Assembly: GCA_011364925.1 (NCBI GenBank)
Contig: RDOA01000003.1
Coordinates: 32,001 to 96,000 of the forward strand
Length of the DNA stretch: 64,000 bases
Direction of reading: 5' to 3'
From: Promethearchaeota archaeon
GTDB taxonomy: Archaea; Asgardarchaeota; Lokiarchaeia; Sigyniarchaeales; SOKP01
The position numbers and the translations under genes are program-made. The notes below the pieces were generated by a model, which saw only the letters and a list, made by a program, of their open reading frames with translations, made no database searches and was not told where the DNA came from. This document shows positions 25,972 through 55,592 of this stretch, in pieces (the first letter of the stretch is position 1; each line of letters begins with the position of its first letter).

Positions 25972-26207
25972 ACCAATCTTAATTTCCTTTTTTTACTTTA
26001 ATATACTTCCTTATTAAGTAAACTCGTGAGAAATTCTTAGCAGTAGTATTTCCACGATCTTAAAAGATCTTTATTTATAGTTTTTATTAAGAGTATCAAT
26101 TTTTTATGATAGATTCTTGTCTATCTGATGATCCAGCTTTGTATACTTTTATATAGAGGTTCGACAATAATGTATTATTATACAATAATAATCGGTTATC
26201 AAGGGTA

Positions 26208-34947: not shown

Positions 34948-35355
34948 TTAGATCTTATTCCAATCGTTCACAATGAGATCATCAATACGCTCGAAATGTT
35001 TAATATTTCCAGTATATAGGGATTCTTGATGAATAATACAAATACTAGCAATCAATTCATCTATAATCCCGATAGTTTGACCTCTTTTTTTAAGATCGGA
35101 AGAAAGTTTAGCAAATTCTTCTGCTGAGTCGTTTTCAAATAAAAATATTTCATCTAAAGCATCGACTAGTAATTTAACTTTCATTAGTCCTTTAGCAACG
35201 TTTTTCATAGAATAACAACCCTTGTATAATTCAGCTACATTGAAAATTGTTGTATTCAAAGATTCCTTTTCTTTTTTTAGATTATTAATTTTTGTATAGC
35301 TATCATTCTTACCCCTAAGATAATAAACTAAAACATCTGTGTCTAATACTGCCAT
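34948..35355 (-). CDS. vapC: PIN-domain toxin
   Basis: VLDTDVLV, AELYKG, DELIASIC, TGNIKHFERI. Confidence 0.9.
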   Translation of the reverse strand: MAVLDTDVLVYYLRGKNDSYTKINNLKKEKESLNTTIFNVAELYKGCYSMKNVAKGLMKVKLLVDALDEIFLFENDSAEEFAKLSSDLKKRGQTIGIIDELIASICIIHQESLYTGNIKHFERIDDLIVNDWNKI

Positions 35356-35366
35356 TTACTATCTCC

Positions 35367-35594
35367 TCAAATTCTAGCCGGTCTTCTTCGTTCTTGGTAC
35401 AAATCTTCTACGATTGTGTCCCATTCATCATCCTCTTTGAAAATCCCGGCTAAATCTTCTAACAATTTCTTTCTTGATTTTGATCTTTTTAATAATCTAT
35501 TTATTAAATCTGCAAAAGATTCTCCTTTCCGCTTTTCTTTACGCAGTCTATCGTATGTTTCAAGAGGTAATGATATCGTTTTATTTGCCATCAT
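35367..35594 (-). CDS. vapB: Antitoxin
   Basis: KTISL...YDRL...KRKGESFADLINRL, directly upstream of vapC. Confidence 0.88.
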   Translation of the reverse strand: MMANKTISLPLETYDRLRKEKRKGESFADLINRLLKRSKSRKKLLEDLAGIFKEDDEWDTIVEDLYQERRRPARI

Positions 35595-36125: not shown

Positions 36126-38039
36126 TTATTTCTGCTTGGCTTTTGTAAGAAATAAATCTGCTATTGCTAACCATTTTTGCTCGGTTTCAGCGTCGAGAGT
36201 ACTCTTTTTTGCTAAATTTTTACCTTCATCAAGGTTTTTAAGAGCTAAATCATACTTTTCAAGCGATTGATAACAAATTCCTAATTTAATATAAGTTTGA
36301 TAAATATACCAATCGTCGCTTCCAAGAACCATCGCTTTGAGAAATTTATTCACCGCTTCTTCGTAATCTTCAAAATACATTAATATTTCACCATATGTAT
36401 CTTGATAAAGTCCATTATTTGGTTCTTTTTTGGTAAGTTTCTGGATTAAGTTTAACGCTCCTTCTCTATCATCTAAGTATTGGAGCCAATAAGCTTTATA
36501 GCAAATAAGATCGTTATCATTTGGGTAGTTAGTGATTAATTCGTTAATGATTTCTAAACCAACTTCAACATTTTGCATTCTTCTAAGAACCGTTGCCTTT
36601 AATATTTTGAGATCTTTTTCATTTTCGGGAAATCTTTCCAGCAGGTCCTCTAGGTAATCTAAGGCTTCTCTATATTGATTAAAGTAGATTAAAATTCTAA
36701 GCTTCTGATAATATAAATTAAGATCACTTGGTTCCAGTTCAATTTTTTTCTCAATTTCCTGTATTTGTGGTTCTAATTGATCACCAAAAGATTTAGTCAT
36801 ATCTGATTGAAAAATAGTTGAAATTTTCTGCCAAATTATACCTTCTAGTTTATCGTAGCTCTCTTTTAATTTTCTTTTAGTCTCAATTTTATAAGCTAAA
36901 TAATTGATATATTCCAATAAGAATTCTTTTAAGGAAGGCTTTAATTCAATATTAAACAAGAACTCACAGCTCTTTTCTGCAATATCGTCTATAATAGATT
37001 CTACATCAGATCTAGGAAAAATTGGAGTGGATTTTGAAAAAAGTTTATTCAAATAGAAAAATTTAGCCAAGCTCTCCTCAATCAATGCGCGCAACATACT
37101 TTCTATTTTTCCTCCTGATTGAAAATAATAGTGTTCACCAGAAGAATGCCTTAATTCAAAAAATCTCAAAGGATATATTCTCCCCTCAGATATTTCAATT
37201 ATATAATAATCGAGCGTCGTTTTTTTAATATCATAGCGTTTTGAGAAATCTTCGGAGGAAATAGAGTTTGGATAGTTATCAGGATGATTAATTGAAAAGA
37301 AGAGTATAATTTTGTGAAACGAGCCCTCGTCTTTCAATAGCGGTTTAACTTTTTCGTAATCTAAAATTAAAATGTAGTTGAGAAATCTGAATTGAATATC
37401 CTTGTCTTTAATTTTATATTTATCAAAAAAATTGAGCGTTTTTTCCGTAATTTCTTCGATCCTTTTACCTTCCTCCTCTAAAATAGTTTGTCTATCCAAG
37501 TCGTAATTTTTAAGCATCCGTGAGTATTCAGATTTACCTAATCGGGTAATTGTATACTTTCCATCCTCTTTTACGATATTACCCTTTTCGATTAATGTAC
37601 TTAAATTCTTAGACAACGAAGATTGATTAATTGAAAGTGGTTCTTCAAGAAATTCAGACCTTCTACAGAAATTATTATTGTAGACCATCCAAAGAATCCA
37701 GTGAGTGTAATTTCTTCCACTCTTTAAAAGCACATCAGGTGGATAATTTAGTATGCGTGCTTTTTTCTTTGCGCTTGAGAGTTCGTTAAATTTCTTTTTT
37801 CCATCTGATGTGATTCTATAATGTCCTCTTGTGACTTTTTCAATAAATCCCTTACGTTGTAGGGGTTCCAAATGCCTAGAAAGCGTTCCTGGTGGAATCT
37901 TGAGCGGATCCTGACAGAAATCTGCCCATTTACACATTTCATTGTTGGTCAACATCCAGAGAATAATATGGTCATAATTAGGTCTATTCCACTTAGAAGG
38001 GGTATAAATCTTGTCTGGAGGGTAATTTACATTTTCCAT
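36126..38039 (-). CDS. Tandem winged-HTH + C-terminal TPR regulator (module A)
   Basis: Two repeats NYxHxILWM.xNN.xC...LSxxL..L..KG.I.K...Y.IT..GK, a third degenerate wHTH, and about 5 TPRs (YQDTYGEIL). Confidence 0.85.
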   Translation of the reverse strand: MENVNYPPDKIYTPSKWNRPNYDHIILWMLTNNEMCKWADFCQDPLKIPPGTLSRHLEPLQRKGFIEKVTRGHYRITSDGKKKFNELSSAKKKARILNYPPDVLLKSGRNYTHWILWMVYNNNFCRRSEFLEEPLSINQSSLSKNLSTLIEKGNIVKEDGKYTITRLGKSEYSRMLKNYDLDRQTILEEEGKRIEEITEKTLNFFDKYKIKDKDIQFRFLNYILILDYEKVKPLLKDEGSFHKIILFFSINHPDNYPNSISSEDFSKRYDIKKTTLDYYIIEISEGRIYPLRFFELRHSSGEHYYFQSGGKIESMLRALIEESLAKFFYLNKLFSKSTPIFPRSDVESIIDDIAEKSCEFLFNIELKPSLKEFLLEYINYLAYKIETKRKLKESYDKLEGIIWQKISTIFQSDMTKSFGDQLEPQIQEIEKKIELEPSDLNLYYQKLRILIYFNQYREALDYLEDLLERFPENEKDLKILKATVLRRMQNVEVGLEIINELITNYPNDNDLICYKAYWLQYLDDREGALNLIQKLTKKEPNNGLYQDTYGEILMYFEDYEEAVNKFLKAMVLGSDDWYIYQTYIKLGICYQSLEKYDLALKNLDEGKNLAKKSTLDAETEQKWLAIADLFLTKAKQK

Positions 38040-38132
38040 AATTTTAGAAAATTCGATGTTAATTATCTAATTTATAGATCGGGATCTTTCATATTTATAT
38101 CTTTTTTATCAAACCTTCGAAAAAAATCGATA

Positions 38133-38209
38133 CTATCGTGAATCTATCGTGAGCGGAATTATAAATGGAACAATATCTGAAGAGCAATTAATCATCATAA
38201 AGATGATTA
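38133..38209 (+). promoter_or_regulatory. Conserved promoter module, copy 1
   Basis: CTATCGTG at 38133 and 38144, TTATAAAT at 38159, TAATCATC-ATAAA-GATGATTA at 38189. Confidence 0.8.
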
Positions 38210-38259
38210 TTTACCAAAAAAAAGTTGAATTAAAAAAATTATGTAAGGTGAAAATGATA

Positions 38260-38907
38260 ATGAAAAAAAAATCAAAAGTGATTAAAGGTTTTCTTGCAAC
38301 ATCATTTTTCATAACTATCATAGCAATTGTTCCATCGGCGTTAGCTTTTGATCCTAATCGCTTCTACTTCGTAGCAATAGGAGATGATCTAGATATCCCA
38401 AGAACTACTAATTTTATCATAGGGAAGATTGAATTCGGTGAAGATGGTGAACTCCCATCAGCGAGCATACTTTTCTATTCAAAAGTCCGTGATGAATCAA
38501 GAAAAGTCTATACGATGACAGGAATGCTCAACGAGGTATATTTTATTGATAAGAGCTTTTCATTTTTCTGCCCACTCTTTAAAGTCTGGTTTGTTAATGT
38601 GTGGCAAGTCATGGGTCAGGGAAAGTTTAGGACTACTGGTACCAGCCCCCAAGTATACTTTCGAGATTTGTTTACAATAACCATGCCAAATACTGGAGGT
38701 GAAGTTGTATCAGCACAGATTTTAGTGTTATTAAGCCCTACAGCTGAATATAGAGAGGGTGATCCCATAAATGGACCGACAGGACCAGTTAAAATTTGGG
38801 AACAAGGAAAATGGGCCCTTGCTGCGGTTATATGGTATGTTCCTGAAATTGATGATTATATGCCAATTGGTCCGATATCCGATATGACAATATTCATAGG
38901 AAGATGA
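38260..38907 (+). CDS. Exported beta-rich protein
   Basis: AGGTGA RBS then MKKKSK...SALA signal peptide. The track start at 38149 lies inside the promoter. Confidence 0.75.
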   Translation: MKKKSKVIKGFLATSFFITIIAIVPSALAFDPNRFYFVAIGDDLDIPRTTNFIIGKIEFGEDGELPSASILFYSKVRDESRKVYTMTGMLNEVYFIDKSFSFFCPLFKVWFVNVWQVMGQGKFRTTGTSPQVYFRDLFTITMPNTGGEVVSAQILVLLSPTAEYREGDPINGPTGPVKIWEQGKWALAAVIWYVPEIDDYMPIGPISDMTIFIGR

Positions 38908-39153
38908 ATCCTATAGTGCTAAATCAATCGTAACAGATAATAAATATATTTTAAATTCTTTTTTTTTTTATAATATCCTTTAGACTATTATTAATTTATT
39001 TACTCTTAAAGAGATTTTTGTCAAGAGAAATCTAATCCAATAATATATGAAATTAATAGAAAAGAATGTTAAGATCCATAATCTATTACACTACATTTAA
39101 AACACTAATTAGCTTATAATATTCATAGGTTTATTATCCAAACAGTTGAGTAT

Positions 39154-41103
39154 ATGTCCCATTCTGAACTAAATCAATTAGCAAGAGCGGAAGAACTTTT
39201 TGATGAAGGTGAGCTTGACAAGGCTTATGGGATCTTAAACGATCGGAGCCAATTTGAGGAGCTAAATCCCCAACAAAAAGAGCATTTCCAGTTTCTTAAG
39301 GGCTTAATTCTATTTTCCCAGTGGAAACATGTAGAGCTTTTTAAGCATGGTGAGGAAATATTTAAAGAAGGTCAAAACCTTAATGATAATCTCCAATCGC
39401 TTGATGGACTATTTTTTATAATCGCTGGATTAGGTCAAGCTAACAGATTTAAAGAAGCCATTCAAAAATTTGAAACTGCTGAAGTGCTATTAGAGCTTAG
39501 TTCTAATGAATCCAGAACCATTTTTACTCAAAGAAAAGCTCGGATGAGACTTCTAAAAGGATGGATTAATCTGGAGTCAAATAATCTAGATGTAGCAGAA
39601 AAGTGCTTAGATTGGGTCTTAAATTCCCAAAATGATCTGGGTAATACATTTGAAATTGTTTGGGCTACTTTATTGAAGGCACGACTTAAGTTTCAAGGAA
39701 AATTGATGTATAATCTCTGTGGAGAATACGCTAAGAAAGCTTTTTCAATGGCAAAACAAATTAAATTTAACCACTTCTGGATTGCTCTTTGTCAAGTGAT
39801 TTTAGGGGCGCTATATTCTAGTCTAGGCGAGATAGATATCAGTTTGAAATATTTCATGAAAAGTTTGGCGATATTTAGAAAAATCAAAAGCAATTATTGG
39901 ATTGCATTTGTGCTTAACGGCGTAGGCTGTATCTATTATGAACTTGGCAATTTCAAACTAAGTCTTAAATACTACGAAGAATGTTTATCAATTCATGAAA
40001 AATTAACTGGTTATCTGGTTCTACCTCTTTCTAATTTAGTTGAAGTGGCGCTTGAAATAGGTGATAATGAACTTGCTCGGCAATACTTCAATCGACTAAA
40101 AAATTTTTACAATCCAAAAGAAGATAGGCTAAGTGAATTAGCATACTTATCTACTAAGGCATTAATGCTAAAAAAGAGTCCTCGAATTCGCGATAAAGCA
40201 AAAGCTGAAGAGATATTTAGAAAAATCATAAACATTGATGCTTTATGGAGTGAATTTGTGATTCACGCAACAATTCATCTGTGTGACCTGCTTCTTTCAG
40301 AATATCATTTTACTAATAGTAATGAAGTACTTGAAGAGCTTAATCACTACATTGCTAAATTATTAACTATAGCGGAAAAAACACAATCATATACTTACTC
40401 TTGTAATACTTTCATATTACAAGCAAAACTAGCTTTAATAAAGTTTGATATAAAATCAGCTCGACGACTTTTTACTCAAGCACAGAAAATAGCGGAATCC
40501 AATGGGATGAACCGATTAGCAATGAAAATTTCACAGGAACACGATGAGTTAATCAAGCAAATAAAGGTATGGGAAATGTTAAAAGAATCAGAAGCGTCAT
40601 TATCTGAACGCTTTGAACTCGCTGGTTTAAGTAAGCAGATAGAAAGTATGGTGAAAAGGAGAATCATTGAAGTTCCAGAGCTTTCAGATGAAGAACCTGT
40701 GCTACTTTTAATAATTTCTGAGGGAGGCACACCATTTTTCTCACAATCTTTTAATGTGGAAAAATCATTCGAATCACACCTTTTTGGCGGCTTTTTGAGC
40801 ACTATAGATTACTTTATTAACGAGGTGTTTTCCGAAGGATTAGATCGCGCCGTATTCGGCGAACACACTCTTCTTATGAAGTCCGTTCCGCCTTTTTTTA
40901 TTGCCTATATATTTAAAGGTCAATCTTACTATGCTCTTCAAAAAATGAGTAGTTTCATTAGTAACCTCCAAAAAAATACTGATATTTGGAATAAATTACT
41001 TAGACATTTTCGAGCAAATCAGACTATTCAATTGAAAGATTTTCCTTTAATCGATTCCTTAATTACAAATACTTTTCTCGCAGGACATACATCTTCGAAA
41101 TAA
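39154..41103 (+). CDS. TPR + C-terminal longin-like domain protein 1
   Basis: Multiple TPRs; EEPVLLLIISEGG.PFFS...LFGGFLSTIDYF...LDRAVFG..TLLMK...YIFKG longin-type pattern. Confidence 0.8.
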   Translation: MSHSELNQLARAEELFDEGELDKAYGILNDRSQFEELNPQQKEHFQFLKGLILFSQWKHVELFKHGEEIFKEGQNLNDNLQSLDGLFFIIAGLGQANRFKEAIQKFETAEVLLELSSNESRTIFTQRKARMRLLKGWINLESNNLDVAEKCLDWVLNSQNDLGNTFEIVWATLLKARLKFQGKLMYNLCGEYAKKAFSMAKQIKFNHFWIALCQVILGALYSSLGEIDISLKYFMKSLAIFRKIKSNYWIAFVLNGVGCIYYELGNFKLSLKYYEECLSIHEKLTGYLVLPLSNLVEVALEIGDNELARQYFNRLKNFYNPKEDRLSELAYLSTKALMLKKSPRIRDKAKAEEIFRKIINIDALWSEFVIHATIHLCDLLLSEYHFTNSNEVLEELNHYIAKLLTIAEKTQSYTYSCNTFILQAKLALIKFDIKSARRLFTQAQKIAESNGMNRLAMKISQEHDELIKQIKVWEMLKESEASLSERFELAGLSKQIESMVKRRIIEVPELSDEEPVLLLIISEGGTPFFSQSFNVEKSFESHLFGGFLSTIDYFINEVFSEGLDRAVFGEHTLLMKSVPPFFIAYIFKGQSYYALQKMSSFISNLQKNTDIWNKLLRHFRANQTIQLKDFPLIDSLITNTFLAGHTSSK

Positions 41104-41170
41104 TTTTTAACTATGTTTTATTGCGTTCGAATTATTCCCAATTTTCAAGCTGTATCATAGAGAATTGAAA

Positions 41171-41246
41171 CTATCGTGAAACTATCGCGAGCTCAATTAT
41201 AAATGCAACAATACCTCAAAATCTATTTAGTCATCGTAAAGATGAT
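41171..41246 (+). promoter_or_regulatory. Conserved promoter module, copy 2
   Basis: CTATCGTG 41171, CTATCGCG 41182, TTATAAAT 41197, GTCATC-GTAAA-GATGAT 41230. Confidence 0.8.
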
Positions 41247-41282
41247 AAAATTGAGATTTCAATAAAAAAGCGGATTCAGAAA

Positions 41283-41678
41283 ATGACTGAAATTAAAAAA
41301 TTTACAAAAATCGTGCTTATAGTGGATGCTATTCTTTGGTTCATGTTTACGATATTCCTTATATTTATTTTTGATATGACTATGAATCCTGAGGGTTGGA
41401 CAAACCCCTATCTCCCAAAATTATTTGGGGGTGTTATTTTTGTATCTGCTATTTTCGCAATTTTAATGCTTCGTAAAAAAGAATGGGAAGAAATTAAACT
41501 GTTATTTGCGTATTTTATAGGGTTACTAATATCGACATTATTCTTTGAAGCTACTGTATTTGCTATTGTAGGATTTGCTTTTGGAACTCTAACGATTATG
41601 GTACATTCATTTAATATAACAGTAGAGGCTGTACTTCTAGCGCTTGCAATTATCAGCTGGATAAAACAAAGAGTATAA
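41283..41678 (+). CDS. Four-TM membrane protein
   Basis: Four hydrophobic helices; GWTNPY loop. Confidence 0.8.
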   Translation: MTEIKKFTKIVLIVDAILWFMFTIFLIFIFDMTMNPEGWTNPYLPKLFGGVIFVSAIFAILMLRKKEWEEIKLLFAYFIGLLISTLFFEATVFAIVGFAFGTLTIMVHSFNITVEAVLLALAIISWIKQRV

Positions 41679-41854
41679 AGCAAAAATCAAAATTAAATTT
41701 AAAAAATTTTTTTCTTTTTTTGACATTGAATATCCATTCTAATAGGTATTAGAATTTTAATAGCAGATTGGTGAACATTATATTTAAAACCCAATTTAGC
41801 TTATATTAGTAATTATATCCAAAAATGTCTTAAATTAAAATGATTTTTGAGTAG

Positions 41855-43549
41855 ATGTTTTTTCTTAATCCTGAGATTAAAGGTTTGAATTCAGTTAGGC
41901 AACTTATGGAAGATGGGAAAATGCAGAAAGCCTTCCAAATTGTTTTAGAATTAGAACAAGGAGACGATCTTTCTCCCAAAGAATTACTCTCGTGTAAGCT
42001 CGTAAAGGCTAATCTATTACGTGTAATAGGAAATTATCCAGACGCAATTGAAATTGCTAAGGAAATTTTTCGAGAATTTCAAAAACAAGGTGATTTAGTA
42101 TCATCGTTAGACGCTTTACTTATTCAAGCATATACCTATATGATAACGGTTAATTTAACTCAAAGTGAACATCTTATTCCACAGATAGAAAATTTATTCA
42201 AAGCAATTAAAGAACCATTATCAATAGATCTCAAAGAAAGAGAATCTTTTTTCTTAAGAATAAAAGCTGCTATTCATTCTCTCAAAGGCGAATTTCAACG
42301 ATCCTTAGAACTTAACAAAAAAGCTTATGATCTAGCTAAAGAGACTGGAAACACAGTATTGATTGTTGCGAGTCTTAATAATACTGCTAATGATTATTTC
42401 CATATGAAAGAATATGACATGGCAATAATGTATGGTAAACAAGCTATTAAGAATGATAGTCTAAATTTGGCAGTTGCGTACGCTACCTTAATTGAAACTT
42501 ATGTCAGCAAGGGAGACATTAAAGAAGCGATAATTTATCTCGATCGTTTGCATGAATTTTCAGAGAATTACGATTCTAAATGGAATAGAACTTTATATTC
42601 CCTAAATAAAGCTTTGATATTAAAATCAAGTCTCCGAGCAAGAGATCGTATTAAAGCAGAAGATCTATTTAAAAAAATAGCTTTGGACAGTACTGTAGCT
42701 GGTACAATGCGGATTGATGCGATTATATATTTATGCGATTTATACTTAACTGAACTTCGGATAACTCACGACCCAGAAATAATAAACGAGATTCACCCAT
42801 ATATTCAAGAGTTATTAAGTATTGCTAAAAAACAAGATTCACATTTATATTTAGCCGAAACTCTACTTTTGCAAGCAAAACTTTCACTATTGACTTTAGA
42901 TATAAAAGAAGCTAAACGATTTTTAACTCGAGGCCAAAAAGTAGCAGAATCACATGGTATTAAACAACTAGCAATGAGAATCTCAAACGAACACGATTAT
43001 TTACTCGGTCAAGAAAAACTCTGGAATAATTTCAAGCAATCAAAAGTTCCTTTCTCTGAACGCTTGGAACTCGCTGGTTTGAATCAACAGATGGATTATA
43101 TGACAAAAAGGCAAATATTCACTATTCCACAACAACCAGACGAGGAACCGGTGCTCCTTTTATTGCTTTCAGAGGGGGGAGTACCCTTTTTCTCCCACAC
43201 TTTTGTAGAAGATCGATCCTTCAAATCGCATCTTTTTGGTGGATTTCTAACCACTATTGATTACTTTATTCGAGAAATGTTTTCTGAAGGATTAGATCGA
43301 GCAATCTTTGGAGATTACACACTTGTTATGAAGTCTCTAACACCTTTTTTTGTTTCCTATATATTTAAAGGTAATTCTTATTACGCTCTCCAAAAAACAG
43401 ATTATTTTATTGAATGTATTAAGAAAGATGAGCATATATGGGCAAAACTACTAAAATATCTTCAAGCAAACCAGTCAATTCAATTAAAAGACATCCCTCA
43501 ACTTGATTCTTTGATAATAGAAATCTTTATCCCAGAAAAATCTGTATGA
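41855..43549 (+). CDS. TPR + longin-like protein 2
   Basis: Same architecture as 39154. Confidence 0.8.
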   Translation: MFFLNPEIKGLNSVRQLMEDGKMQKAFQIVLELEQGDDLSPKELLSCKLVKANLLRVIGNYPDAIEIAKEIFREFQKQGDLVSSLDALLIQAYTYMITVNLTQSEHLIPQIENLFKAIKEPLSIDLKERESFFLRIKAAIHSLKGEFQRSLELNKKAYDLAKETGNTVLIVASLNNTANDYFHMKEYDMAIMYGKQAIKNDSLNLAVAYATLIETYVSKGDIKEAIIYLDRLHEFSENYDSKWNRTLYSLNKALILKSSLRARDRIKAEDLFKKIALDSTVAGTMRIDAIIYLCDLYLTELRITHDPEIINEIHPYIQELLSIAKKQDSHLYLAETLLLQAKLSLLTLDIKEAKRFLTRGQKVAESHGIKQLAMRISNEHDYLLGQEKLWNNFKQSKVPFSERLELAGLNQQMDYMTKRQIFTIPQQPDEEPVLLLLLSEGGVPFFSHTFVEDRSFKSHLFGGFLTTIDYFIREMFSEGLDRAIFGDYTLVMKSLTPFFVSYIFKGNSYYALQKTDYFIECIKKDEHIWAKLLKYLQANQSIQLKDIPQLDSLIIEIFIPEKSV

Positions 43550-43704
43550 TCTCAATTTGATAGAATCTCAAAAAATGTTTTAATAGGGATATGTTCTTTA
43601 AAAAATTGAATATAATCATAAGTTCACATTATATTTAAAACACAAATTAGCTTATATTAGTAATTATAACCAAAAAGTTTTGGTTTAGCGAGATTTTTGA
43701 TTAG

Positions 43705-45387
43705 ATGATTCATTTTGATGATAAAGAACTGATTGAAATCAGTCAAATTATAGAAGAGGGCAAACTGAAGGAAGCTTACCAGGCTATTTTAGAATTGGAG
43801 CAAAAAGATGATCTATCTAATAAAGAAAAAATCTCATGTAAACTCATTAAAGCTAATCTTTTCCGAGTTATGGGACAATATTTGGAATCTATTGAATATG
43901 CTGAAACAGTTTTTCAAGAATCTCAAAAAGGAGGAGATATTCTTTCATCTTTCGATGCTTTAACCATTCAAGCGCATTGCTATACATATATGGTTGACAT
44001 AATTAAAAGTGAAGAACTTTACACTCAAGCACAAGAGATATTTAAAATAATAAAAGAAAGATTTTCCATAGATCTAAGGGAGAGAGAATCTTTCTTGGTA
44101 AGGATAAAAGCTGGAATTAACTTTTTTAAGGGAGATATTAAATCTTATATAAAATTAAATGAGGAGGCTTATGACCTCGCAAAAAATACAAAGAGTGAAA
44201 ACCTAATTGCTTCTAGCCTTAACAACCTTGCTCAAGGTTACTTTCATTTAAAAGAATATGACAAAGCCATACAGTATGCTAAAGAAGCCGTTAAGATTGG
44301 AAAATCTTTTACTTTAGCTTATGCATTAGGAACATTAATTGATATATATCTCGGGATGGGCGATATTAACGAAGCAAAAGCTAATCTTGGAATCTTTCAT
44401 GATCATGCCAAAGAACTTGGTACTGAAAGATACAAAACTCTCTATAATTACTCTAAAGCATCAGTTTTAAAAGCTAGTCTAAGAGCCAGAGACCGTATCA
44501 AATCTGAAGATATCTTCCTGAGTATTGCATTGGATCATGCAAGACCTAGCGAACAAAGGATTGATGCGATTCTTAGTTTATGTGATTTATACATAACTGA
44601 ACTTCGGATAACTAATGACCCCGAAATAATAAACGAGATTCACCCATATATTCAAGAATTGTTAAATATTGCTAAAAAACAACATTCACGTTTATATTTA
44701 GCCGAAACATTACTTTTGCAAGCAAAACTTTCACTACTAACTTTAGATATAAAAGAAACTAAACGATTTTTAAATCAAGGTCAAAAAATAGCAGAATTGT
44801 ACGGTATTAAACAACTGGCAATGAGAATCTCAAATGAACATGATAATTTACTCAGTCAAGAAAAAATTTGGGAGAATTTCAAGCAATCAAAAGTACCCTT
44901 CTCCGAACGTTTGGAACTCGCCGGTTTGAATCAACAGATGGATTATATGACGAGAAGGCGAATATCTGTTATCCCACAACAACCCGGCGAGGAACCAGTG
45001 CTGCTTTTATTGCTTTCAGAGGGAGGAGTCCCTTTTTTCTCATACACATTTGGAGAAGATCGATCCTTTAAATCGCATCTTTTTGGTGGATTTTTAACCA
45101 CTATCGATTACTTTATTCGAGAAATGTTTTCTGAAGGATTAGATCGCGCAATCTTTGGAGATTACACTCTTGTCATGAAGTCTGTGACGCCATTTTTCGT
45201 TTCCTATATATTTAAAGGCAATTCTTATTACGCTCTCCAGAAAGCGGATAATTTTATTGATACTATTAAAAACAACGAGCAACTTTGGAAAAAGCTGCTT
45301 AAATATTTTCAAGCGAACCAAGCAATTCAATTAAATGACATCCCTCAACTTGATTCTCTAATAAATGAGGTCTTTATAACAAAATAA
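43705..45387 (+). CDS. TPR + longin-like protein 3
   Basis: 3' half nearly identical to 41855; 5' half divergent. Confidence 0.8.
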   Translation: MIHFDDKELIEISQIIEEGKLKEAYQAILELEQKDDLSNKEKISCKLIKANLFRVMGQYLESIEYAETVFQESQKGGDILSSFDALTIQAHCYTYMVDIIKSEELYTQAQEIFKIIKERFSIDLRERESFLVRIKAGINFFKGDIKSYIKLNEEAYDLAKNTKSENLIASSLNNLAQGYFHLKEYDKAIQYAKEAVKIGKSFTLAYALGTLIDIYLGMGDINEAKANLGIFHDHAKELGTERYKTLYNYSKASVLKASLRARDRIKSEDIFLSIALDHARPSEQRIDAILSLCDLYITELRITNDPEIINEIHPYIQELLNIAKKQHSRLYLAETLLLQAKLSLLTLDIKETKRFLNQGQKIAELYGIKQLAMRISNEHDNLLSQEKIWENFKQSKVPFSERLELAGLNQQMDYMTRRRISVIPQQPGEEPVLLLLLSEGGVPFFSYTFGEDRSFKSHLFGGFLTTIDYFIREMFSEGLDRAIFGDYTLVMKSVTPFFVSYIFKGNSYYALQKADNFIDTIKNNEQLWKKLLKYFQANQAIQLNDIPQLDSLINEVFITK

Positions 45388-45431
45388 CTTGTTTGATCTC
45401 TATTTAGGTAATTGATTAAAAATAATTGAAA

Positions 45432-45509
45432 CTATCGCGAAACTATCGATAGCTCAATTATAAATGAGATTTTACCTCCAGATTTAATTAGTCATCGCAA
45501 AGATGATTA
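45432..45509 (+). promoter_or_regulatory. Conserved promoter module, copy 3
   Basis: CTATCGCG 45432, CTATCGAT 45443, TTATAAAT 45458, TAGTCATC-GCAAA-GATGATTA 45489. Confidence 0.8.
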
Positions 45510-45532
45510 CTTTAAATCTAAACACAAGAGAG

Positions 45533-46255
45533 TTGATAAAAATTAATAGATCAAAAATAGTTAAAAATATAACATTACTTGCGACTATCGGAATTTTACT
45601 TCTGGTGTTTTCCACATCAGTGCAAGGTTGGGGTGGATATAGGAGTCGAATCAATATTAGACCTATAGAGGATTGGAAAGGAGAAGATGTTGTAGGCTGG
45701 GCAGATCCAGAATCTGGGTTAGTTATCCATCCTCAAGCTGTCGAATGGGTCCCCGCTGATCCAGAGAGTCCTAACTTTCCATTTACTCTCTTAGATTGGG
45801 AGCGAAAACCCATATGGGAGTGCGAATATTGGGGAACGATTCTGGAACGAGAATTAGATGATCAAAACACATTAATCTCTATTTATATTTATGTAAAGGA
45901 AGTTCCCTTCATGATCTTCACTCTTACTGGAGCAGATTATATCTATTATCCCCCACTCTATTATGGTGTGATGCAATACTATTTCCAATGCAAGATGCAA
46001 TTCAATACAGAGTCCCTTTATAATATATTTGAAGCTGATGGAAAAATTCCTGCTCTCAATGAAATATTTGGTGCATCCTACGGTTTTTGGCCTTATCCCG
46101 AAGAACCAGTTCCACTTGTGACATACATGCACATTTTAGGAGTGGGTGAAATAACTGAAGGAGGAGATGGAACTGTATATCTCCATCAACTTGGGATTTT
46201 TAACACAGAAATAGGAGATTATGATTATCCGTACGAAACGGTAGTCGTTAAGTAG
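45533..46255 (+). CDS. Exported acidic/aromatic-rich protein
   Basis: TTG start MIKINRSKIV mirrors 49116; signal peptide ending SVQG. Confidence 0.75.
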   Translation: MIKINRSKIVKNITLLATIGILLLVFSTSVQGWGGYRSRINIRPIEDWKGEDVVGWADPESGLVIHPQAVEWVPADPESPNFPFTLLDWERKPIWECEYWGTILERELDDQNTLISIYIYVKEVPFMIFTLTGADYIYYPPLYYGVMQYYFQCKMQFNTESLYNIFEADGKIPALNEIFGASYGFWPYPEEPVPLVTYMHILGVGEITEGGDGTVYLHQLGIFNTEIGDYDYPYETVVVK

Positions 46256-46293
46256 AGAGCTTTAGGGCGAGGTTTTATATATTTAAATTACAT

Positions 46294-46364
46294 AATAGAA
46301 CATGGAGGAATTGGATTAGAAATTAAATTTCTACCAATAAACCTCCGTTCTATTTTTTTTTTTT
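46294..46364 (+). terminator. Long bulged hairpin + T-run (terminator or small RNA)
   Basis: ATAGAAC(AT)GGAGG/CCTCCGTTCTAT, ATTGG/CCAAT and TAGAAAT/ATTTCTA stems followed by poly-T. Confidence 0.6.
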
Positions 46365-46457
46365 AATTCCTTAGAAAAGGTAAAATTAATTCAATTGAAT
46401 AAATATCGAATTCAATTAACTAAAGTTTTATATTAGGCTATATCTAATTTTACATTA

Positions 46458-47012
46458 ATGACTAATTCTTCTGAATTTGGCTTTAAAATATCTATAATCG
46501 GTGATGGCGGGGTTGGTAAGACCTCCCTAATCAAAAAGTATACAATGGGAACTTTTGAGAAGGATTATGTTAAGACGATAGGTGCTCAATTCTCTAGATA
46601 TGATCAAGAAATCGATGGAGATCTAATTAATTTAATATTTTGGGATATCGCAGGTCAGGATGATTTTAAATTCCTGCATCCTTTATTTTATAAAGAGAGC
46701 CGAGCTGCTATTATTGTATATAGTCTTGAAGAAAATGATTTAGGTAATGATAGCTACAAGCATATAATCAATTGGTATAACGAATTAAAGAAATATTGTG
46801 GAATTATTCCTGTGGTTATTATTGCCAATAAAATTGATTTAATTAATCAATCTGAGTTGGATGAGTTTGCAATTCAAAATTTAGTCAAAGAAAATAACTT
46901 TCTTGGATATTTTATTACTTCTGCAAAAACAGGCGAGGGAGTAATAGATGCTTTTAACGCAATTATCAAAAACTTATACTATAAGTATAAAGATTTATCT
47001 AGCTCTCAGTAG
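46458..47012 (+). CDS. Rab-like small GTPase (module A)
   Basis: GDGGVGKTS, YVKTIG, WDIAGQ, NKID, TSAK; no C-terminal Cys tail. Confidence 0.95.
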   Translation: MTNSSEFGFKISIIGDGGVGKTSLIKKYTMGTFEKDYVKTIGAQFSRYDQEIDGDLINLIFWDIAGQDDFKFLHPLFYKESRAAIIVYSLEENDLGNDSYKHIINWYNELKKYCGIIPVVIIANKIDLINQSELDEFAIQNLVKENNFLGYFITSAKTGEGVIDAFNAIIKNLYYKYKDLSSSQ

Positions 47013-48927
47013 CGTGATTTAAAGGTATCAAAGATCTATGTTCCTCTATCTCTGCGAGAAAAAGGTCTACAATTGCTAACCATTTATTTTTTGATTCCAA
47101 ATCGCTTATAATTTTGCTTGTTAATTCTTTTCCTCTCTTAAGATTTTGTACAGCTAATTCAAAATTTTCGAGAGCTGTATAACAAATTCCAATTTTGATA
47201 TAAGTCTGATAGATAAACCAATCGTTAGAATCAATTTCTATGGCTTTTTGGAATTCATTTATCGCTTCTTCGTATTCTTTAAAGTTTATTAAAATTTCTC
47301 CGAATGTATCGTGGAAAATTCCATTTTCTGGTTCTTTTTTTACGAGTTCCCGAAGAAGTTCCAATGCTTCTTGTTCTTTATCTAAATAAGATAACCAATA
47401 CGCTTTATAATTATGAAGCAGAGTATTGTTTGGATATTTTTCGATTAAATCTTCAATAATTTTTAAGCCTTCTTCTAAGTTTTTATCTTTTTTAAGAGTA
47501 TAAGCTTTTTTTATCGTAATATCTATCTCTTTTTTAGGAAATATCTCGAACATGTTTTCTAGTACCATTAAAACATCGTTATACTGATTAAAATAGAGTA
47601 AAATTCGTACTTTTGAATTGTATAAATCGTAATTCTTTGGACTTAATTCAATTTCATTTTCTATTTCTTTAATTTTCTCTTTGTATTGAGATTCAAATGT
47701 TTCAGAATTCTGCGATTGCATTATCTCCGTCATGTTCTGCCAAATAATTCCTTCTAGTTTATCGTATGTCTCTACTAATTCTTTTTTTATCTCAATTTTA
47801 TATGCTAGATATTCCATATACTCTGGTAAAAATTCTCTTAATGGTTCCTCGAAATCCTTATGAAATAAAAATTGACATACTTCTTCGAGAATATCGTCAA
47901 TCATCGAATTCATACTTCCTAATTCAGCAAATTTTTCTAAATATTTGTTTGCTGCTATATGTTCTTCCGTAATAGCTCGAAGAATTTTCTCTAATTTTTC
48001 GTCAAAATGGAAATAGTACCGTTTCTTGGGGGAAATATCTAAAATAAAAAACTTTAAGTCGTAGAATTCGCTTTCTACAATCTCATGTACCCAATAATCA
48101 AGCATTCTCTTCTCTATTTTGTAAAATCTCGAAAAATCCTCAAAAGATAAGTAATCAGGATAAAAATCGGGATGATTTATTGAAATAAAGAGCAAAATTT
48201 TGTAAAAATCCTCCTCATCTTTTAAGATTGAGTTAACTTTTAAATAATCTAATTTTAAAACCTTATTGAGAAATCTAAATTTTACACGATCGTCAATAAT
48301 ATTGAACTTATCGAAGAAATGCGACGCTTTTACAGTGATTTCGTCTATTCGCTTTCTTTCTTCTTCTAAAATTGTTTGTCTGTCTAAATTATAATTTTGT
48401 AGAATCCTCGAATATTCTATTTTCCCTAATTGAGTAATGATATATCTTTTGTTTTCTCTGACGATAAATCCCTTTTGAATTAATAAACTTAGAGTTTTTG
48501 ATAAAGAGGACTGATTTATAGAGAAAGGTTTTTCAAGAAAATCAGACCTTTTACAAAACCCATTATTGTACACCATCCAAATAATCCAGTGGGCATAATT
48601 TCGCCCTCTCTTCAAAATGACATCAGGGGGGAAACTTAGTTTTCGTTCCCTGGTTCTTTCTCTTGATAATTCTTGAAATTTTTGTTCCCCTTCTGGAGTT
48701 ATCTGGTATTGTCCTCTAGAAAGTTTCTCTACGAAGCCTTTGAGGATTAATTTTGTTAAATGACGGGAAATTGTAGATATGGGAATTTCAAGCGGTTTTT
48801 GTTCGAAATAGGACCATTCACAACTTTCATTATTCTTTAACATCCAAAGAATAATATGGTCATAGTTTGGCCTTTTCAGTTTAGAGGAATTAAGAATCTC
48901 ATCGGAAGGATAATTTATTTTGCTCAT
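46999..48927 (-). CDS. Tandem winged-HTH + TPR regulator (module B)
   Basis: Full-length paralog of 36126. Confidence 0.85.
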   Translation of the reverse strand: MSKINYPSDEILNSSKLKRPNYDHIILWMLKNNESCEWSYFEQKPLEIPISTISRHLTKLILKGFVEKLSRGQYQITPEGEQKFQELSRERTRERKLSFPPDVILKRGRNYAHWIIWMVYNNGFCKRSDFLEKPFSINQSSLSKTLSLLIQKGFIVRENKRYIITQLGKIEYSRILQNYNLDRQTILEEERKRIDEITVKASHFFDKFNIIDDRVKFRFLNKVLKLDYLKVNSILKDEEDFYKILLFISINHPDFYPDYLSFEDFSRFYKIEKRMLDYWVHEIVESEFYDLKFFILDISPKKRYYFHFDEKLEKILRAITEEHIAANKYLEKFAELGSMNSMIDDILEEVCQFLFHKDFEEPLREFLPEYMEYLAYKIEIKKELVETYDKLEGIIWQNMTEIMQSQNSETFESQYKEKIKEIENEIELSPKNYDLYNSKVRILLYFNQYNDVLMVLENMFEIFPKKEIDITIKKAYTLKKDKNLEEGLKIIEDLIEKYPNNTLLHNYKAYWLSYLDKEQEALELLRELVKKEPENGIFHDTFGEILINFKEYEEAINEFQKAIEIDSNDWFIYQTYIKIGICYTALENFELAVQNLKRGKELTSKIISDLESKNKWLAIVDLFLAEIEEHRSLIPLNHATES

Positions 48928-49010
48928 GATAGTTGAAAACTTAGTCTTATGATTAATTATGAATATTTATATTTATATCTATTTTTCGAAACTTCCACTT
49001 TTTTTCGGAA

Positions 49011-49086
49011 TTTCCGTGGAATTATCGGAAGCTTAATTATATATGCAAATTTATCTCAAGATTTAATTAATCATCGTAAAGATGAT
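49011..49086 (+). promoter_or_regulatory. Conserved promoter module, copy 4 (diverged repeats)
   Basis: TTTCCGTG 49011, TTATCGGA 49022, TTATATAT 49037, ATCATC-GTAAA-GATGAT 49070. Confidence 0.7.
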
Positions 49087-49115
49087 AAAATCTAATATAA
49101 CTGAAAAAAAAAGAG

Positions 49116-49664
49116 TTGATTAAAATTAATAGAACAAAATTAGTACCAAAATTAATACTAGTACTCTTAGTATTTACCACTATAACTGGCTTTGCATTTA
49201 CTTTTGTTGTAGCTAAAGGAGATCAAAGGGCAAGTAGATTATCTTTTACAGCTACAGAAACTATGATATGGCCAGATGGTTGGGTTCCTATAGGTGATCC
49301 ATGGGGTGATGGTAAGTTCATACATCAGATGTACTATAAAAAAGCAATTCTTGATGGCACAATTGAGGAAATAGGGGACTTTTCAGGGTATGATGAATTA
49401 TATTTGCATGTTAAAATGGACCCAAATACCTTTGAGGTTATAAGCATTGGTAAAGTAACGATGTATATCTTTTGCGATAACGGACTAGAAGGAACTTTTT
49501 ATGGATCTGTTATTGCGAAGGGTACAGCTGGCTTTGGTCCTTTCGACGGTAAATATACGTTGCAAGGAGCTGGAGGATTTGAAGGAATGAAGCTTTTTGG
49601 TATAGTCTGGCTTGAAAGTGGTCTAGTAAACGGACTTTCTGGTACAATCTTAATCCCAAATTAA
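49116..49664 (+). CDS. Exported all-beta protein
   Basis: Signal peptide MIKINRTKLV...VVA; Gly-rich beta strands (GAGGFEGMKLFG). Confidence 0.75.
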   Translation: MIKINRTKLVPKLILVLLVFTTITGFAFTFVVAKGDQRASRLSFTATETMIWPDGWVPIGDPWGDGKFIHQMYYKKAILDGTIEEIGDFSGYDELYLHVKMDPNTFEVISIGKVTMYIFCDNGLEGTFYGSVIAKGTAGFGPFDGKYTLQGAGGFEGMKLFGIVWLESGLVNGLSGTILIPN

Positions 49665-49688
49665 AATCAAGAATAAAGGTGAATTCAA

Positions 49689-50777
49689 ATGCAAAAATCA
49701 ATGCAAAGAAAACTATTGTTGATGTTTCTCCTTGGTTCAATATTTTTCGTAATTCCTATTGCGAGCTCTAATGGAACTACATTCACTCCAAAGAAGGTTG
49801 CAGAACAATCTCTGTCCGGTGCTACAACTCACGTTTATTTGGATGGAGATTACGCATTCATGGGAGTTGGAACATCCGGTCTGGCCATCGTTGATATTTC
49901 CCACCCGAAAAATCCAGGAACCCCGGTCTATAGAGACACCTCCGGCAGGGCGTATAACCTTTGGGTAGAGGGAGGCTACGCCTATGTGGCAGATTTTGAT
50001 AAGGGTTTAGCTGTCATTGATGTTTCCGACCCAACAAACCCAGGACCTGCTACGCACGTACTAACAACCCAAGCTTGTGGTGATGTATGTGTTAGTGGAA
50101 ATTACGCTTATGTGGACGGTGGTGGCTTAGCGGTTATCGACATTTCTGACCCAGTGCATCCGAACCTGGTCGTAACCAAACCTTTAACTGGAATTCCGTA
50201 TGGTCTTTGCGTGAGTGGAGAATACGCATACATAGCAACTGCTGATACTGGTTTGGCGATCGTCAATATTTCCGATCCGACCAATCCAGGAACTCCCATT
50301 TACGAAGATACGACCGGAACTGCGTGGGATGTGTGTGTAAGTGGCGGTTACGCCTATGTAACAACCGGTAGTACCGGTTTAGCGATTATCGATGTTTCCG
50401 ACCCGACAAATCCGGGAACGCCTGTTTATAGAGACACGACAGGAACTGCATATTTTATTTTTCTAAACGGAAGTTACGCCTATATAGCGGCTGATACTGG
50501 AGGCGTGGCGATCATTGATGTATCCGACCCGACAAATCCGGGAACGCCGACCTATATAGATGTGGAAGGTCAAGCAATTGATGTGTATGTCAGGGGAGAC
50601 TATGCTTATGTGGCGGATGAACATTACGGCTTGAAAGTCTACGATCTTTTCTATACTACTCCAGAACCTGGTATTCCATTCGATAATTTCTACTTATTAT
50701 TTATTGGGTTTAGCGTACTATGCTTAGTATTCATCGTTTCAAAAAAACGCAAAATTACTAGTGAATCTCAAAAATAA
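49689..50777 (+). CDS. LVIVD-repeat beta-propeller surface protein with C-terminal TM anchor
   Basis: About 7 repeats of V.G.YAYVA....GLAIIDVSDPTNPG; signal peptide; PGIPF-TM-KKRK sorting-like tail. Confidence 0.9.
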   Translation: MQKSMQRKLLLMFLLGSIFFVIPIASSNGTTFTPKKVAEQSLSGATTHVYLDGDYAFMGVGTSGLAIVDISHPKNPGTPVYRDTSGRAYNLWVEGGYAYVADFDKGLAVIDVSDPTNPGPATHVLTTQACGDVCVSGNYAYVDGGGLAVIDISDPVHPNLVVTKPLTGIPYGLCVSGEYAYIATADTGLAIVNISDPTNPGTPIYEDTTGTAWDVCVSGGYAYVTTGSTGLAIIDVSDPTNPGTPVYRDTTGTAYFIFLNGSYAYIAADTGGVAIIDVSDPTNPGTPTYIDVEGQAIDVYVRGDYAYVADEHYGLKVYDLFYTTPEPGIPFDNFYLLFIGFSVLCLVFIVSKKRKITSESQK

Positions 50778-50799
50778 ATCAAAAATCTAATAATTAATG

Positions 50800-50832
50800 T
50801 TAACACCTAATTGGTGTTAAACAAATTTTTTT
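50800..50832 (+). terminator. Hairpin + T-run
   Basis: TTAACACC-TAATT-GGTGTTAA followed by a T tract. Confidence 0.6.
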
Positions 50833-51093
50833 CTTATCTTTTACTGGATTTATAATGCATTTTATCATTTATTTTCAGATTTTATTAATCTTAGAATTCA
50901 TTTACTAATTCAAGTGATATATATGATTTTTAACGAAGTGAATAAATTGAACTTTATAGGGAAGATACATTAAGGTTATCTCTCTTTTCAAATCAAAAAT
51001 CAATTACATTTAAAATTATAACAAACATAATATTTTAATTAAATATTATACAATAATGTATCTTTTTCAATCCAATAATTTAGGGACAGGGTC

Positions 51094-53169: not shown

Positions 53170-53269
53170 CATTATCTTTTTCTGTTAGTTTAATTTGCCA
53201 AAATTTTATATTAAACTAAAACCAATCTAACATTAAATACTTATAATTTGATTTAGATATAGAAATCTA

Positions 53270-53824
53270 ATGAAACCCTTTGAGGAATTTCGATTTAAAA
53301 TTGTAATCTTAGGAGATGGTGCAGTAGGTAAAACATCCCTAATTCAGAAATTCACTAAAGGGGTATTTGAAAAAGAATATGTAAAAACAATCGGAGCTCA
53401 GTTTTCAAAATACAACAAAAAGATTGATGGAGATATAATTAGATTAATATTTTGGGATATAGCAGGTCAGATAGATTTCAATTTTCTAAATCACTTATTT
53501 TATAAAGAAGCTAAAGCAGCAATTATAGTATTTAGTCTCGAAACTAATGATTTGGGTCAAAAAAGTTTCATCCATATAACAAACTGGTATAAGGAATTAG
53601 AAAAGTATTGCGGTACTATTCCTGTTGTTACATTTGCGAATAAAGTTGATTTGGTGGATAAAAATAGATTAAATGAGTCTAAAATCCAAAAATTAGCCAA
53701 GGAAAATAACTTCCTTGGATATTATATCACCTCTGCAAAAACAGGAGAGGGCGTAATAGAAGCTTTTAATGCTATTATTGATAAATTATATTTTAAATAT
53801 AAAAAATTATCATCAATTGATTGA
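53270..53824 (+). CDS. Rab-like small GTPase (module B)
   Basis: GDGAVGKTS, WDIAGQ, NKVD, TSAK; close paralog of 46458. Confidence 0.95.
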   Translation: MKPFEEFRFKIVILGDGAVGKTSLIQKFTKGVFEKEYVKTIGAQFSKYNKKIDGDIIRLIFWDIAGQIDFNFLNHLFYKEAKAAIIVFSLETNDLGQKSFIHITNWYKELEKYCGTIPVVTFANKVDLVDKNRLNESKIQKLAKENNFLGYYITSAKTGEGVIEAFNAIIDKLYFKYKKLSSID

Positions 53825-55445: not shown

Positions 55446-55592
55446 ATACCCTAGAGAAAAAAAAGCAATTTAGCTTTAATTTTTTTTAATCCTTTTACTA
55501 TTCTATCATACCATAAGTATAAAGGCAATAGCATCTTCAATTTTTAATGGTCATCTGTATTAATGACAAAAAAGTAAAAATGGTAGTAGATA

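Follow-up and report, generated by a model that had tools for sequence, protein, structure and literature searches.

We examined a 64,000-nucleotide stretch of the genome of a Promethearchaeota archaeon (Asgard archaea, Lokiarchaeia; contig RDOA01000003.1, positions 32,001–96,000; hereafter the window) and found that a promoter-plus-leader module occurs in it four times, each copy upstream of a gene for a predicted exported or membrane protein (cargo 1 to cargo 4). The module combines phased direct repeats, a TFB recognition element (BRE), a TATA box and a short hairpin, and sequence comparison across the genus supports its being a conserved archaeal promoter-plus-leader cassette. The phased repeats are probably the operator of two neighbouring regulators, REG_A and REG_B, each with two winged helix-turn-helix (wHTH) units followed by a TPR part. 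Taken as a whole, such a cassette under control of these regulators is the best explanation that we can offer, and a rather probable one. All coordinates are positions within the window, and all four modules lie on the + strand (Table 1).

Direct reading and alignment of the four sites bore out the preliminary description of a four-copy module with regularly spaced repeats, TATA box and hairpin. The conserved block spans approximately 88 bp in every module. Two octamers lie exactly 11 bp apart in all four copies (CTATCGTG/CTATCGTG in copy 1, CTATCGTG/CTATCGCG in copy 2, CTATCGCG/CTATCGAT in copy 3, and TTTCCGTG/TTATCGGA in copy 4). Measured from the start of the second octamer, the TATA octamer follows at exactly 15 bp; it reads TTATAAAT in copies 1–3 and TTATATAT in copy 4. 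An inverted repeat, (A/G)TCATC-N5-GATGAT, begins 32–33 bp after the TATA start; the hairpin as a whole has a stem of 6–7 bp and starts at 31–32 bp, some 24 bp past the TATA box. The repeat is better viewed as a tandem 11-mer of the GRAAC-TATCG-Y type with two units (R1 and R2), reading GAAACTATCGY twice in copies 1–3; in copy 4 the two units are GGAATTTCCGT and GGAATTATCGG, in that order. Abutting the TATA box and overlapping the BRE is a third box of degenerate sequence (GAGCTCAA or AAGCTTAA). The three boxes share a GRAAC/GGAA core and are phased at 11, 11 and ~10 bp, and they therefore lie on one face of the helix.

In archaeal promoters an A/T-rich octamer precedes the transcription start by ~26–28 bp and is itself immediately preceded by a purine-rich BRE. 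Across ~100 copies of the module, TTATAWAT was near-invariant and kept a fixed distance to the repeats and the hairpin. A T|A or T|G step lies 27–28 nt from the TATA centre, and a conserved T|purine step immediately precedes the hairpin. Using the general archaeal TATA-to-start distance (PMC8553660), we infer that the transcript starts at the first position of the hairpin or 1–2 nt from it.

The motif scan of the genome and its relatives that the preliminary description had called for indicated that the module is unique to this locus at high stringency and conserved across the genus. An nhmmer profile of the four copies gave only these four strong matches in the 3.9-Mb assembly of 33% G + C (E ~1e-20, next match E>1), and the hairpin pattern was matched six times (four sites, two of them also on the − strand) against 0.06 expected; a chance origin is excluded. 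A loose regular expression (three GRAA boxes plus TATA) missed three true copies and returned random A-rich matches, and nhmmer and covariance models were used instead. The module recurs upstream of regulator orthologues in relatives. A covariance model built from 17 module copies (model R1) found ~60 copies across 25 of 42 genus genomes and 39 further copies in other genome and metagenome contigs, with no match in five outgroup genomes. Alignment of 61 copies showed 57 to be gap-free across the repeat, TATA and spacer columns, and information content was highest at TCG-GAAC, (C/T)G-GAAAC, TCGG-AAG, TATAAA and the TCATC/GATGA stem arms. This uneven conservation therefore points to selection on the sub-elements, not merely to recent duplication.

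Within this genome, model R1 also recovered three copies of diverged sequence, all on contig C24, as well as a weak site at 55482–55574. The C24 modules (25060–25151, 26172–26264 and 29550–29642) have no regulator nearby and precede exported-protein genes, one of them a cargo 3 homologue. In these copies the box sequence is GGAACTCCCAyGAATGTTCC, which is similar to that in the divergent promoter of an unlinked paralogue regulator (C23:13402–15084), and the hairpins are replaced by GATTTTC/GAAAATC and GGTTATC/GATAATC. The weak site is doubtful as a fifth module-like element; it precedes the gene of a cytoplasmic C_GCAxxG_C_C protein (55593–56114, Pfam), a homologue of which in another genome (L060) is also preceded by a weak module-like site.

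As previously described, modules 1 and 4 stand back-to-back with the regulator genes, at 83 and 73 bp from the divergent start codons. Pfam winged-helix families (HTH_45, HTH_34 and MarR) matched twice in the first 180 residues of the regulators, and TPR matches began at approximately residue 420. Scores were 31.8 bits for HTH_45 (cut-off 25.5) and 28.6 for HTH_34 (cut-off 27) in REG_A, and 28.2 for MarR (cut-off 24.6) in REG_B. The two wHTH units represent an internal duplication (39% identity, E 2e-19). An AlphaFold2 model of residues 1–190, based on 30 orthologues, contained two H-H-H-beta-beta-H winged-helix units with a mean pLDDT of 85; its pTM of 0.49 makes the relative orientation of the two units unreliable. 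In modelled topology and in family profiles, both units thus have the features of winged helix-turn-helix domains. Foldseek returned single-domain MarR, PadR, AspA and HlyU matches and weak matches to tandem winged-helix proteins such as SarS (1p4x), and no convincing two-domain analogue of the two-domain model was found in the PDB (best E 7.6e-4, TM ~0.3). A sequence search of the PDB with the regulator returned generic TPR proteins only. The family has ~970 members in public data, all annotated as hypothetical or 'TPR protein' and all from Asgard metagenome-assembled genomes.

The contrast in recognition helices that had been reported, PPGTLSRHL versus PISTISRHL, is present in the translations, and the repeats of the module beside REG_B have diverged too. 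In REG_B the wHTH1 helix reads ISTISRHL, and the wHTH2 helix is of the same type as in REG_A (NQSSLSK). Each regulator gene also has an inverted box at its own promoter: that of REG_A corresponds to a genus-wide rGAACTTCCA box beside the regulator TATA, and that of REG_B, which reads TGGAAGTTTC on the − strand, abuts the regulator TATA.

The earlier interpretation of a regulon with a candidate operator for these regulators gained ground from adjacency, co-occurrence, the tracking of helix and repeat, and the boxes of paralogues; the head-to-tail reading geometry proposed with it did not. Among 64 module copies, 31 lay 73–86 bp from the start codon of a divergent gene of REG_A or REG_B type, and the remaining copies sat further inside the same kind of locus. 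The module was not equally frequent where the regulator was missing: of the 24 genomes in the genus that encode a full-length regulator with 53% identity or more, 23 contained it, versus two of the 18 without, and one of these two has a contig-truncated regulator beside the module. All clades and paralogues shared one wHTH2 helix (INQSSLSK), and it was the wHTH1 helix that varied. Regulators with the helix IPIST(I/L)SRH always flanked GGAATTTyC / GGAATTrYCG repeats, whether cargo 1, 2 or 4 lay downstream, those with IP(P/T)GTLSRH flanked GrAACTATCr repeats, and other helix variants flanked other repeats. In several modules without an adjoining regulator, the repeats were closer to the regulator-adjacent repeats of their own genome than to orthologous cargo modules elsewhere (0.84 vs 0.49, 0.84 vs 0.59 and 0.92 vs 0.71), and the downstream halves of the same modules showed no such own-genome resemblance. 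More distant paralogue clades, whose target genes are different and whose promoters lack the hairpin, keep GAAC-type boxes of their own abutting a divergent TATA. The boxes are TTCGAACTT-N7-AAGTTTCG-CAATAAAAACTAT in the C23 type, whose operator the C24 modules resemble, GAACTTCGAAGTTCGTTCGAACTTC in the C61 type, and ATGAAAsyyTC repeats in the C43 paralogue.

The paralogue regulators are ~850 and 990 amino acids (aa) long (L100–L115 in relatives; C23, C61 and C43 in the same genome), with palindromic boxes and different, apparently cytoplasmic target genes. That copy 4 might be a chimera of B-type repeats and an A-type downstream half was considered and rejected; cargo-4 modules beside REG_B elsewhere (L029:823 and L026:6630) share the downstream half.

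Several observations weigh against assigning the repeats to the neighbouring regulators. Adjacent genes and the intergenic DNA between them are co-inherited, so that the helix/repeat correlation and the co-occurrence are partly trivial and represent few independent events; the A-versus-B correlation in particular amounts to one or a few events among linked neighbours and hence is not independent evidence. The own-genome similarity test is small, only four of 15 cases beating the best outside match, and local gene conversion could also yield such similarity. One genome (G015) has a regulator 54% identical and no match to model R1, and another (G055) has the module and no regulator at the threshold used.

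It is also conceivable, though improbable, that the phased boxes are read by another factor, such as a transcription factor not linked to the locus or a basal-factor paralogue specific to the lineage, and that the wHTH-TPR proteins act elsewhere or bind no DNA. Half of the module copies have no adjoining regulator, the three C24 copies have none nearby, and linkage alone explains the co-occurrence. On the other hand, no protein of the conserved locus other than the regulator is predicted to bind DNA, GAAC-type boxes are found at the regulator's own divergent promoter in all examined paralogue clades but one, the repeat variants track the wHTH1 helix, and the C24 boxes resemble the promoter boxes of the C23 paralogue, to which they are not linked.

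The geometry by which the regulators would read the repeats is a separate matter. Tandem homologous domains facing tandem repeats one helical turn apart make a coherent picture, by analogy with PhoB on the pho box. The proposal that head-to-tail domains read head-to-tail repeats has nevertheless been weakened. Both repeats differ between the A and B clades, R1 more than R2, yet the wHTH2 helix stays the same; the boxes of paralogues that share the two-domain layout are inverted or palindromic, so that the picture of one domain per repeat may be wrong; and the modelled orientation of the domains is too unreliable to bear on the geometry. No less likely is a division of labour, in which wHTH1 would set the specificity and wHTH2 would read the constant GRAAC core or have some other role, possibly within an oligomer held by the TPR part.

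Under the mechanism that we propose, the neighbouring regulator, with its two wHTH units and a C-terminal TPR sensor in one chain, would bind the phased boxes just upstream of the BRE/TATA and so control the recruitment of TBP and TFB. The choice of repeat variant would depend on the variable recognition helix of wHTH1, and the inverted box beside the regulator's own TATA would permit autoregulation. The cassette would thereby drive short transcription units for exported and membrane proteins inside loci of regulator, TPR-longin and small-GTPase genes. Activation appears more likely than repression because the R1 and R2 boxes lie upstream of the BRE; the third box overlaps the BRE, as would suit a repressor.

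The hairpin starts 27–28 nt after the TATA centre, and every copy folds into a stem. In 66 aligned copies, double changes occurred at all seven pairs, and the observed values were reached by none of 500 shuffles. Diverged copies have wholly different stems in the same place (GATTTTC/GAAAATC, GGTTATC/GATAATC and AAAAGCA/TGCTTTT), and loops are 3–5 nt or more and free in sequence. Inner stem pairs over 96 distinct modules comprised 481 Watson-Crick, 17 G-U and eight A-C pairs. The excess of G-U over A-C leans to an RNA structure on the sense strand and is not significant given the relatedness of the copies, which are non-independent. No Rfam 15 family matched at E≤1 between positions 36000 and 54000, save a chance miRNA match far below threshold. 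The leader downstream of the hairpin is A-rich and contains a GAGTTGA box. We modestly favour a 5'-terminal RNA stem-loop, which would act in mRNA stability or translation control, over an operator in the DNA, for which the case is a good deal more tentative. Two of the findings suit the latter as well: near-invariant half-sites separated by 5 nt of free sequence are also compatible with a DNA-binding dimer placed over the start site, and a G-U to A-C ratio of 17:8 is compatible with an RNA stem or a DNA palindrome.

A further step would be to regard the palindrome ATCATC-N5-GATGAT over the predicted start as the actual operator, where a dimeric DNA-binding protein, perhaps the adjacent regulator in the role of a repressor, would block RNA polymerase, and the upstream repeats as separate or auxiliary. 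We regard this as unlikely. Its half-sites are near-invariant and its sequence-free 5-nt spacer is mostly fixed in length; its position at approximately +1 to +19 is typical of archaeal repressors, several of which (Phr, LrpA and MDR1) bind around the start site; symmetric double changes are equally expected of a palindromic operator; and the G-U excess (17 vs 8) is not significant. However, pairing is kept when the spacer varies from 3 to 5 nt or more, as in GATCATC-ATA-GATGAT and AAGCATC-ATA-GATGCTT and in the 4-nt loops of the C24 and C43 copies, and the stems vary (GCATC, TCACC and GATTTTC) while the wHTH2 helix is constant. Moreover, the A and B regulators differ in wHTH1 and share the same palindrome, and paralogue promoters keep the GAAC boxes without any palindrome.

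Three other readings of the hairpin were rejected. The ATG within the 3' arm (GATGAT) is in frame and open in only six of ~55 copies, approximately the chance level, and is not the true start codon. The GAGTTGA box is not an alternative partner of the 5' arm, being unchanged where the stem becomes GCATC/GATGC. The palindrome is unlikely to be read by wHTH2, since the stems change and INQSSLSK is constant, and since the paralogues lack the palindrome. As a side observation, there is a likeness between the Shine-Dalgarno core AGGTGA of cargo 1 and the 3' arm, which reads GATGAT or, in several relatives, GGTGAT, and likewise between the complement of that core and the 5' arm ATCA(T/C)C (for example at 49081–49090 in the window, and at L026:10171, L029:7905 and L054:10645).

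That the similarity of the four copies is a mere by-product of recent segmental duplication or gene conversion, with sub-elements lacking any specific function, is very improbable: the locus is indeed made of paralogous units (two regulators, four TPR-longin genes and two GTPases) and the shuffled order of cargo genes among genomes indicates active recombination, but the module is kept in dozens of species-level genomes with very uneven per-column conservation, fixed spacing and compensatory changes in the stem, upstream of cargo coding regions that are mutually unrelated.

The locus runs in the order REG_A (−), module and cargo 1, TPR-longin, module and cargo 2, two TPR-longin genes, module and cargo 3, Ras-family GTPase, REG_B (−), module, cargo 4 and LVIVD propeller, TPR-longin, and GTPase. 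The propeller gene, 24 bp after cargo 4, encodes a 362-aa LVIVD-repeat beta-propeller with a signal peptide and a C-terminal transmembrane segment. A long T-run ends every cargo unit (T11, T7+T7, T12 and T7). The TPR-longin genes have a conserved promoter-like block of their own, ACATT(ATA)TTTAAAAC(A/C)C(A/T)AATTAGCTTATAT, at 39093–39135, 41775–41805, 43626–43656 and 51006–51015; it is unrelated to the cargo module and therefore suggests a second candidate regulon in the locus. Together with the T-runs, these distinct promoters indicate that the module drives short cargo units only. The observation that modules precede cargo genes and never TPR-longin or GTPase genes extended across the genus, with none of 63 downstream genes belonging to the latter kinds. 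Of these 63 downstream proteins, 43 satisfied a strict rule for an N-terminal hydrophobic segment, versus 10.9% of background open reading frames, and ~56 showed by eye a K-rich N-terminus followed by a hydrophobic stretch. They include proteins of the cargo 1 to cargo 4 types and giant LVIVD proteins of 1000–2000 aa. The pairing of regulator and cargo differs among genomes, and the cassette therefore behaves as a portable unit.

Table 1 Coordinates of the modules, regulators and cargo genes in the 64,000-nucleotide window.
Feature	Position	Strand	Details
REG_A, 637 aa	36126–38039	−	Two homologous wHTH units, aa ~4–90 and ~97–180; recognition helices aa 50–62 PGTLSRHLEPLQRK and aa 139–152 QSSLSKNLSTLIEK; helical middle part; C-terminal TPR aa ~420–637
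REG_A own promoter region	38090–38119	−	TATA-like ATATTTATATC; degenerate inverted box CAAACCTTCG 38110–38119
Module copy 1	38123–38214	+	Covariance-model score 85.6 bits; octamer starts 38133/38144
Copy 1, boxes		+	R1 GATACTATCGT 38129–38139; R2 GAATCTATCGT 38140–38150; R3/BRE GAGCGGAA 38151–38158
Copy 1, TATA and hairpin		+	TATA TTATAAAT 38159–38166; inverted repeat 38191–38207; hairpin AATCATC-ATAAA-GATGATT 38190–38208
Cargo 1, 217 aa	38254–38907	+	Signal-peptide-like N-terminus, no Pfam family; AGGTGA Shine-Dalgarno before ATG; T11 run 38959–38969 downstream
Module copy 2	41161–41253	+	97.8 bits; no adjoining regulator; octamer starts 41171/41182
Copy 2, elements		+	R1 41167–41177; R2 41178–41188; TATA 41197–41204; inverted repeat/hairpin GTCATC-GTAAA-GATGAT 41230–41246
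Cargo 2, 131 aa	41283–41678	+	Multi-span membrane protein; T7+T7 runs 41707–41721 downstream
Module copy 3	45422–45514	+	90.8 bits; no adjoining regulator; octamer starts 45432/45443
Copy 3, elements		+	R1 45428–45438; R2 45439–45449; TATA 45458–45465; inverted repeat 45491–45507
Copy 3, hairpin	45490–45508	+	AGTCATC-GCAAA-GATGATT, one G-U-compatible pair
Cargo 3, 240 aa	45533–46255	+	Exported protein; conserved TTG start (MIKINRSK...); stem plus T12 46353–46364 downstream
REG_B, 642 aa	46999–48927	−	56% identity to REG_A
REG_B own promoter region	48969–48997	−	TATA-like ATATTTATATCTATTT; inverted box GAAACTTCCA 48988–48997
Module copy 4	49001–49093	+	96.9 bits; B-type repeats; octamer starts 49011/49022
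Copy 4, elements		+	R1 GGAATTTCCGT 49007–49017; R2 GGAATTATCGG 49018–49028; TATA TTATATAT 49037–49044
Copy 4, inverted repeat/hairpin	49070–49086	+	ATCATC-GTAAA-GATGAT
Cargo 4 unit	49116–50777	+	Cargo 4, 182 aa, TTG start (MIKINRTK...); T7 run 50826–50832
Weak, doubtful fifth module-like site	55482–55574	+	30.5 bits, E 0.034

Several side observations concern the same region. A conserved (A)AGAGTTGA(T) box (the GAGTTGA box) lies ~25 nt past the hairpin at 38224–38232, 45527–45535 and 49110–49118, and also in the leaders of L021–L025. In cargo 3 and cargo 4 the TTG start codon (MIKINR...) falls within it, and in the leaders of cargo 1 and 2 the box is untranslated or out of frame; being a start in the former and a remnant elsewhere, it suggests repeated capture of the promoter-leader unit by unrelated exported-protein genes. 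Gene order in the locus is reshuffled among species (L022, L025, L026, L029, L032, L045 and L054 compared with 36126–53824 in the window), and the modules may serve as recombination points, given that the same regulator type occurs with different cargo types. After cargo 3 (46300–46364), a G + C-rich stem (GGAGGAATTGG...CCTCC) followed by T12 has the shape of a bacterial-style terminator, here in an archaeon. Further upstream on the − strand, at 34948–35594, a PIN-domain protein gene (135 aa) lies directly downstream of a 75-aa open reading frame, with the look of a VapBC-type toxin-antitoxin pair, near genes for a glyoxalase-fold protein and an Acyl_transf_3 membrane protein.

The literature search found no description of the regulator, of the module or of any Asgard promoter motif, and the regulator family, its box motif and the leader hairpin are undescribed so far. 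Asgard archaea are mostly uncultured, and to our knowledge no transcription factor–operator pair and almost no cis-regulatory logic have been described in them. The putative regulon lies within clusters of genes for Rab/Ras-like GTPases and TPR-longin/roadblock proteins, which are under study as precursors of eukaryotic trafficking; knowing how the cargo is controlled would reveal the purpose of the GTPase modules. The locus offers a concrete regulon that can be tested in vitro, with a DNA target of ~45 bp, natural A-type and B-type variants and two putative cognate regulators that differ chiefly in a single recognition helix. In addition, the conserved 5' hairpin may represent a new archaeal leader motif. 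The system would be a clean, tractable first cis-regulatory system for Asgard GTPase loci, though familiar in type. A bolder and rather doubtful idea is that the portable cassette forms a two-layer switch, coupling small-GTPase/TPR-longin modules to the output of exported proteins through TPR sensing, phased boxes and a hairpin tag. The TPR domain would then sense the state of the GTPase/TPR-longin proteins, or the cargo itself, and turn on the cargo promoters, and the shared hairpin would be a common tag of secretory mRNAs for an RNA-binding factor acting on stability, localisation or translation.

Compared with known systems, the overall logic is an ordinary divergent arrangement of regulator and target. 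The hairpin recalls the 5' stem-loops that stabilise mRNAs (E. coli ompA; the B. subtilis aprE and ermC leaders), being short, at or 1–2 nt from the predicted 5' end, and in front of exported-protein genes. Those leaders belong to bacterial genes and counter RNase E or RNase J, whereas the start site here is predicted, and we know of no 5'-terminal stem-loop described as an mRNA stabiliser in archaea. The regulators, with an N-terminal HTH, a C-terminal TPR part and a gene beside that of a secreted product, are reminiscent of the RNPP regulators (PlcR, NprR, ComR, Rgg, PrgX and phage AimR), which combine an HTH with a TPR ligand sensor and control the adjoining gene for the secreted product. 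RNPP proteins, however, have a single XRE-type HTH, occur in Firmicutes and phages and respond to small processed peptides. Here the winged helix is duplicated and not of XRE type, the neighbours are exported proteins of 130–2000 aa, no small peptide gene was seen, and the TPR matches are to generic families only; the resemblance appears to be one of logic only. Two winged-helix domains per polypeptide are also found in SarS/SarU of Staphylococcus, where the halves of SarS form a pseudo-dimer, and in the Rep initiators (RepE, RepA and pi), a monomer of which uses both domains to read direct repeats known as iterons. The role of Rep proteins is to initiate replication, the Foldseek similarity to SarS is weak (TM 0.3), and no sequence relation of either to the regulators was detected.

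Winged-helix activators on phased direct repeats and archaeal activators at upstream sites come closer. PhoB and OmpR bind head-to-tail as winged helices to direct repeats of 11-bp period upstream of the core promoter and activate by recruiting polymerase, and the 11-bp repeats found here likewise lie directly upstream of a core promoter element. In these bacterial regulators, two separate phosphorylated monomers dimerise and contact sigma70, whereas here two wHTH units and a TPR part are joined in one chain without a receiver domain, at an archaeal BRE/TATA promoter. Ptr2 of Methanocaldococcus and other factors that bind just upstream of the BRE have paired sites at a position that stimulates TBP/TFB recruitment, as do the boxes described here; Ptr2 itself belongs to the Lrp/AsnC family, differs in fold and oligomeric state, and has neither a TPR domain nor two wHTH units within one chain. 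By analogy, the module and its regulators would work most like a combination of these two, with winged helices on phased direct repeats as in PhoB/OmpR and an activating site upstream of the archaeal core promoter as in Ptr2.

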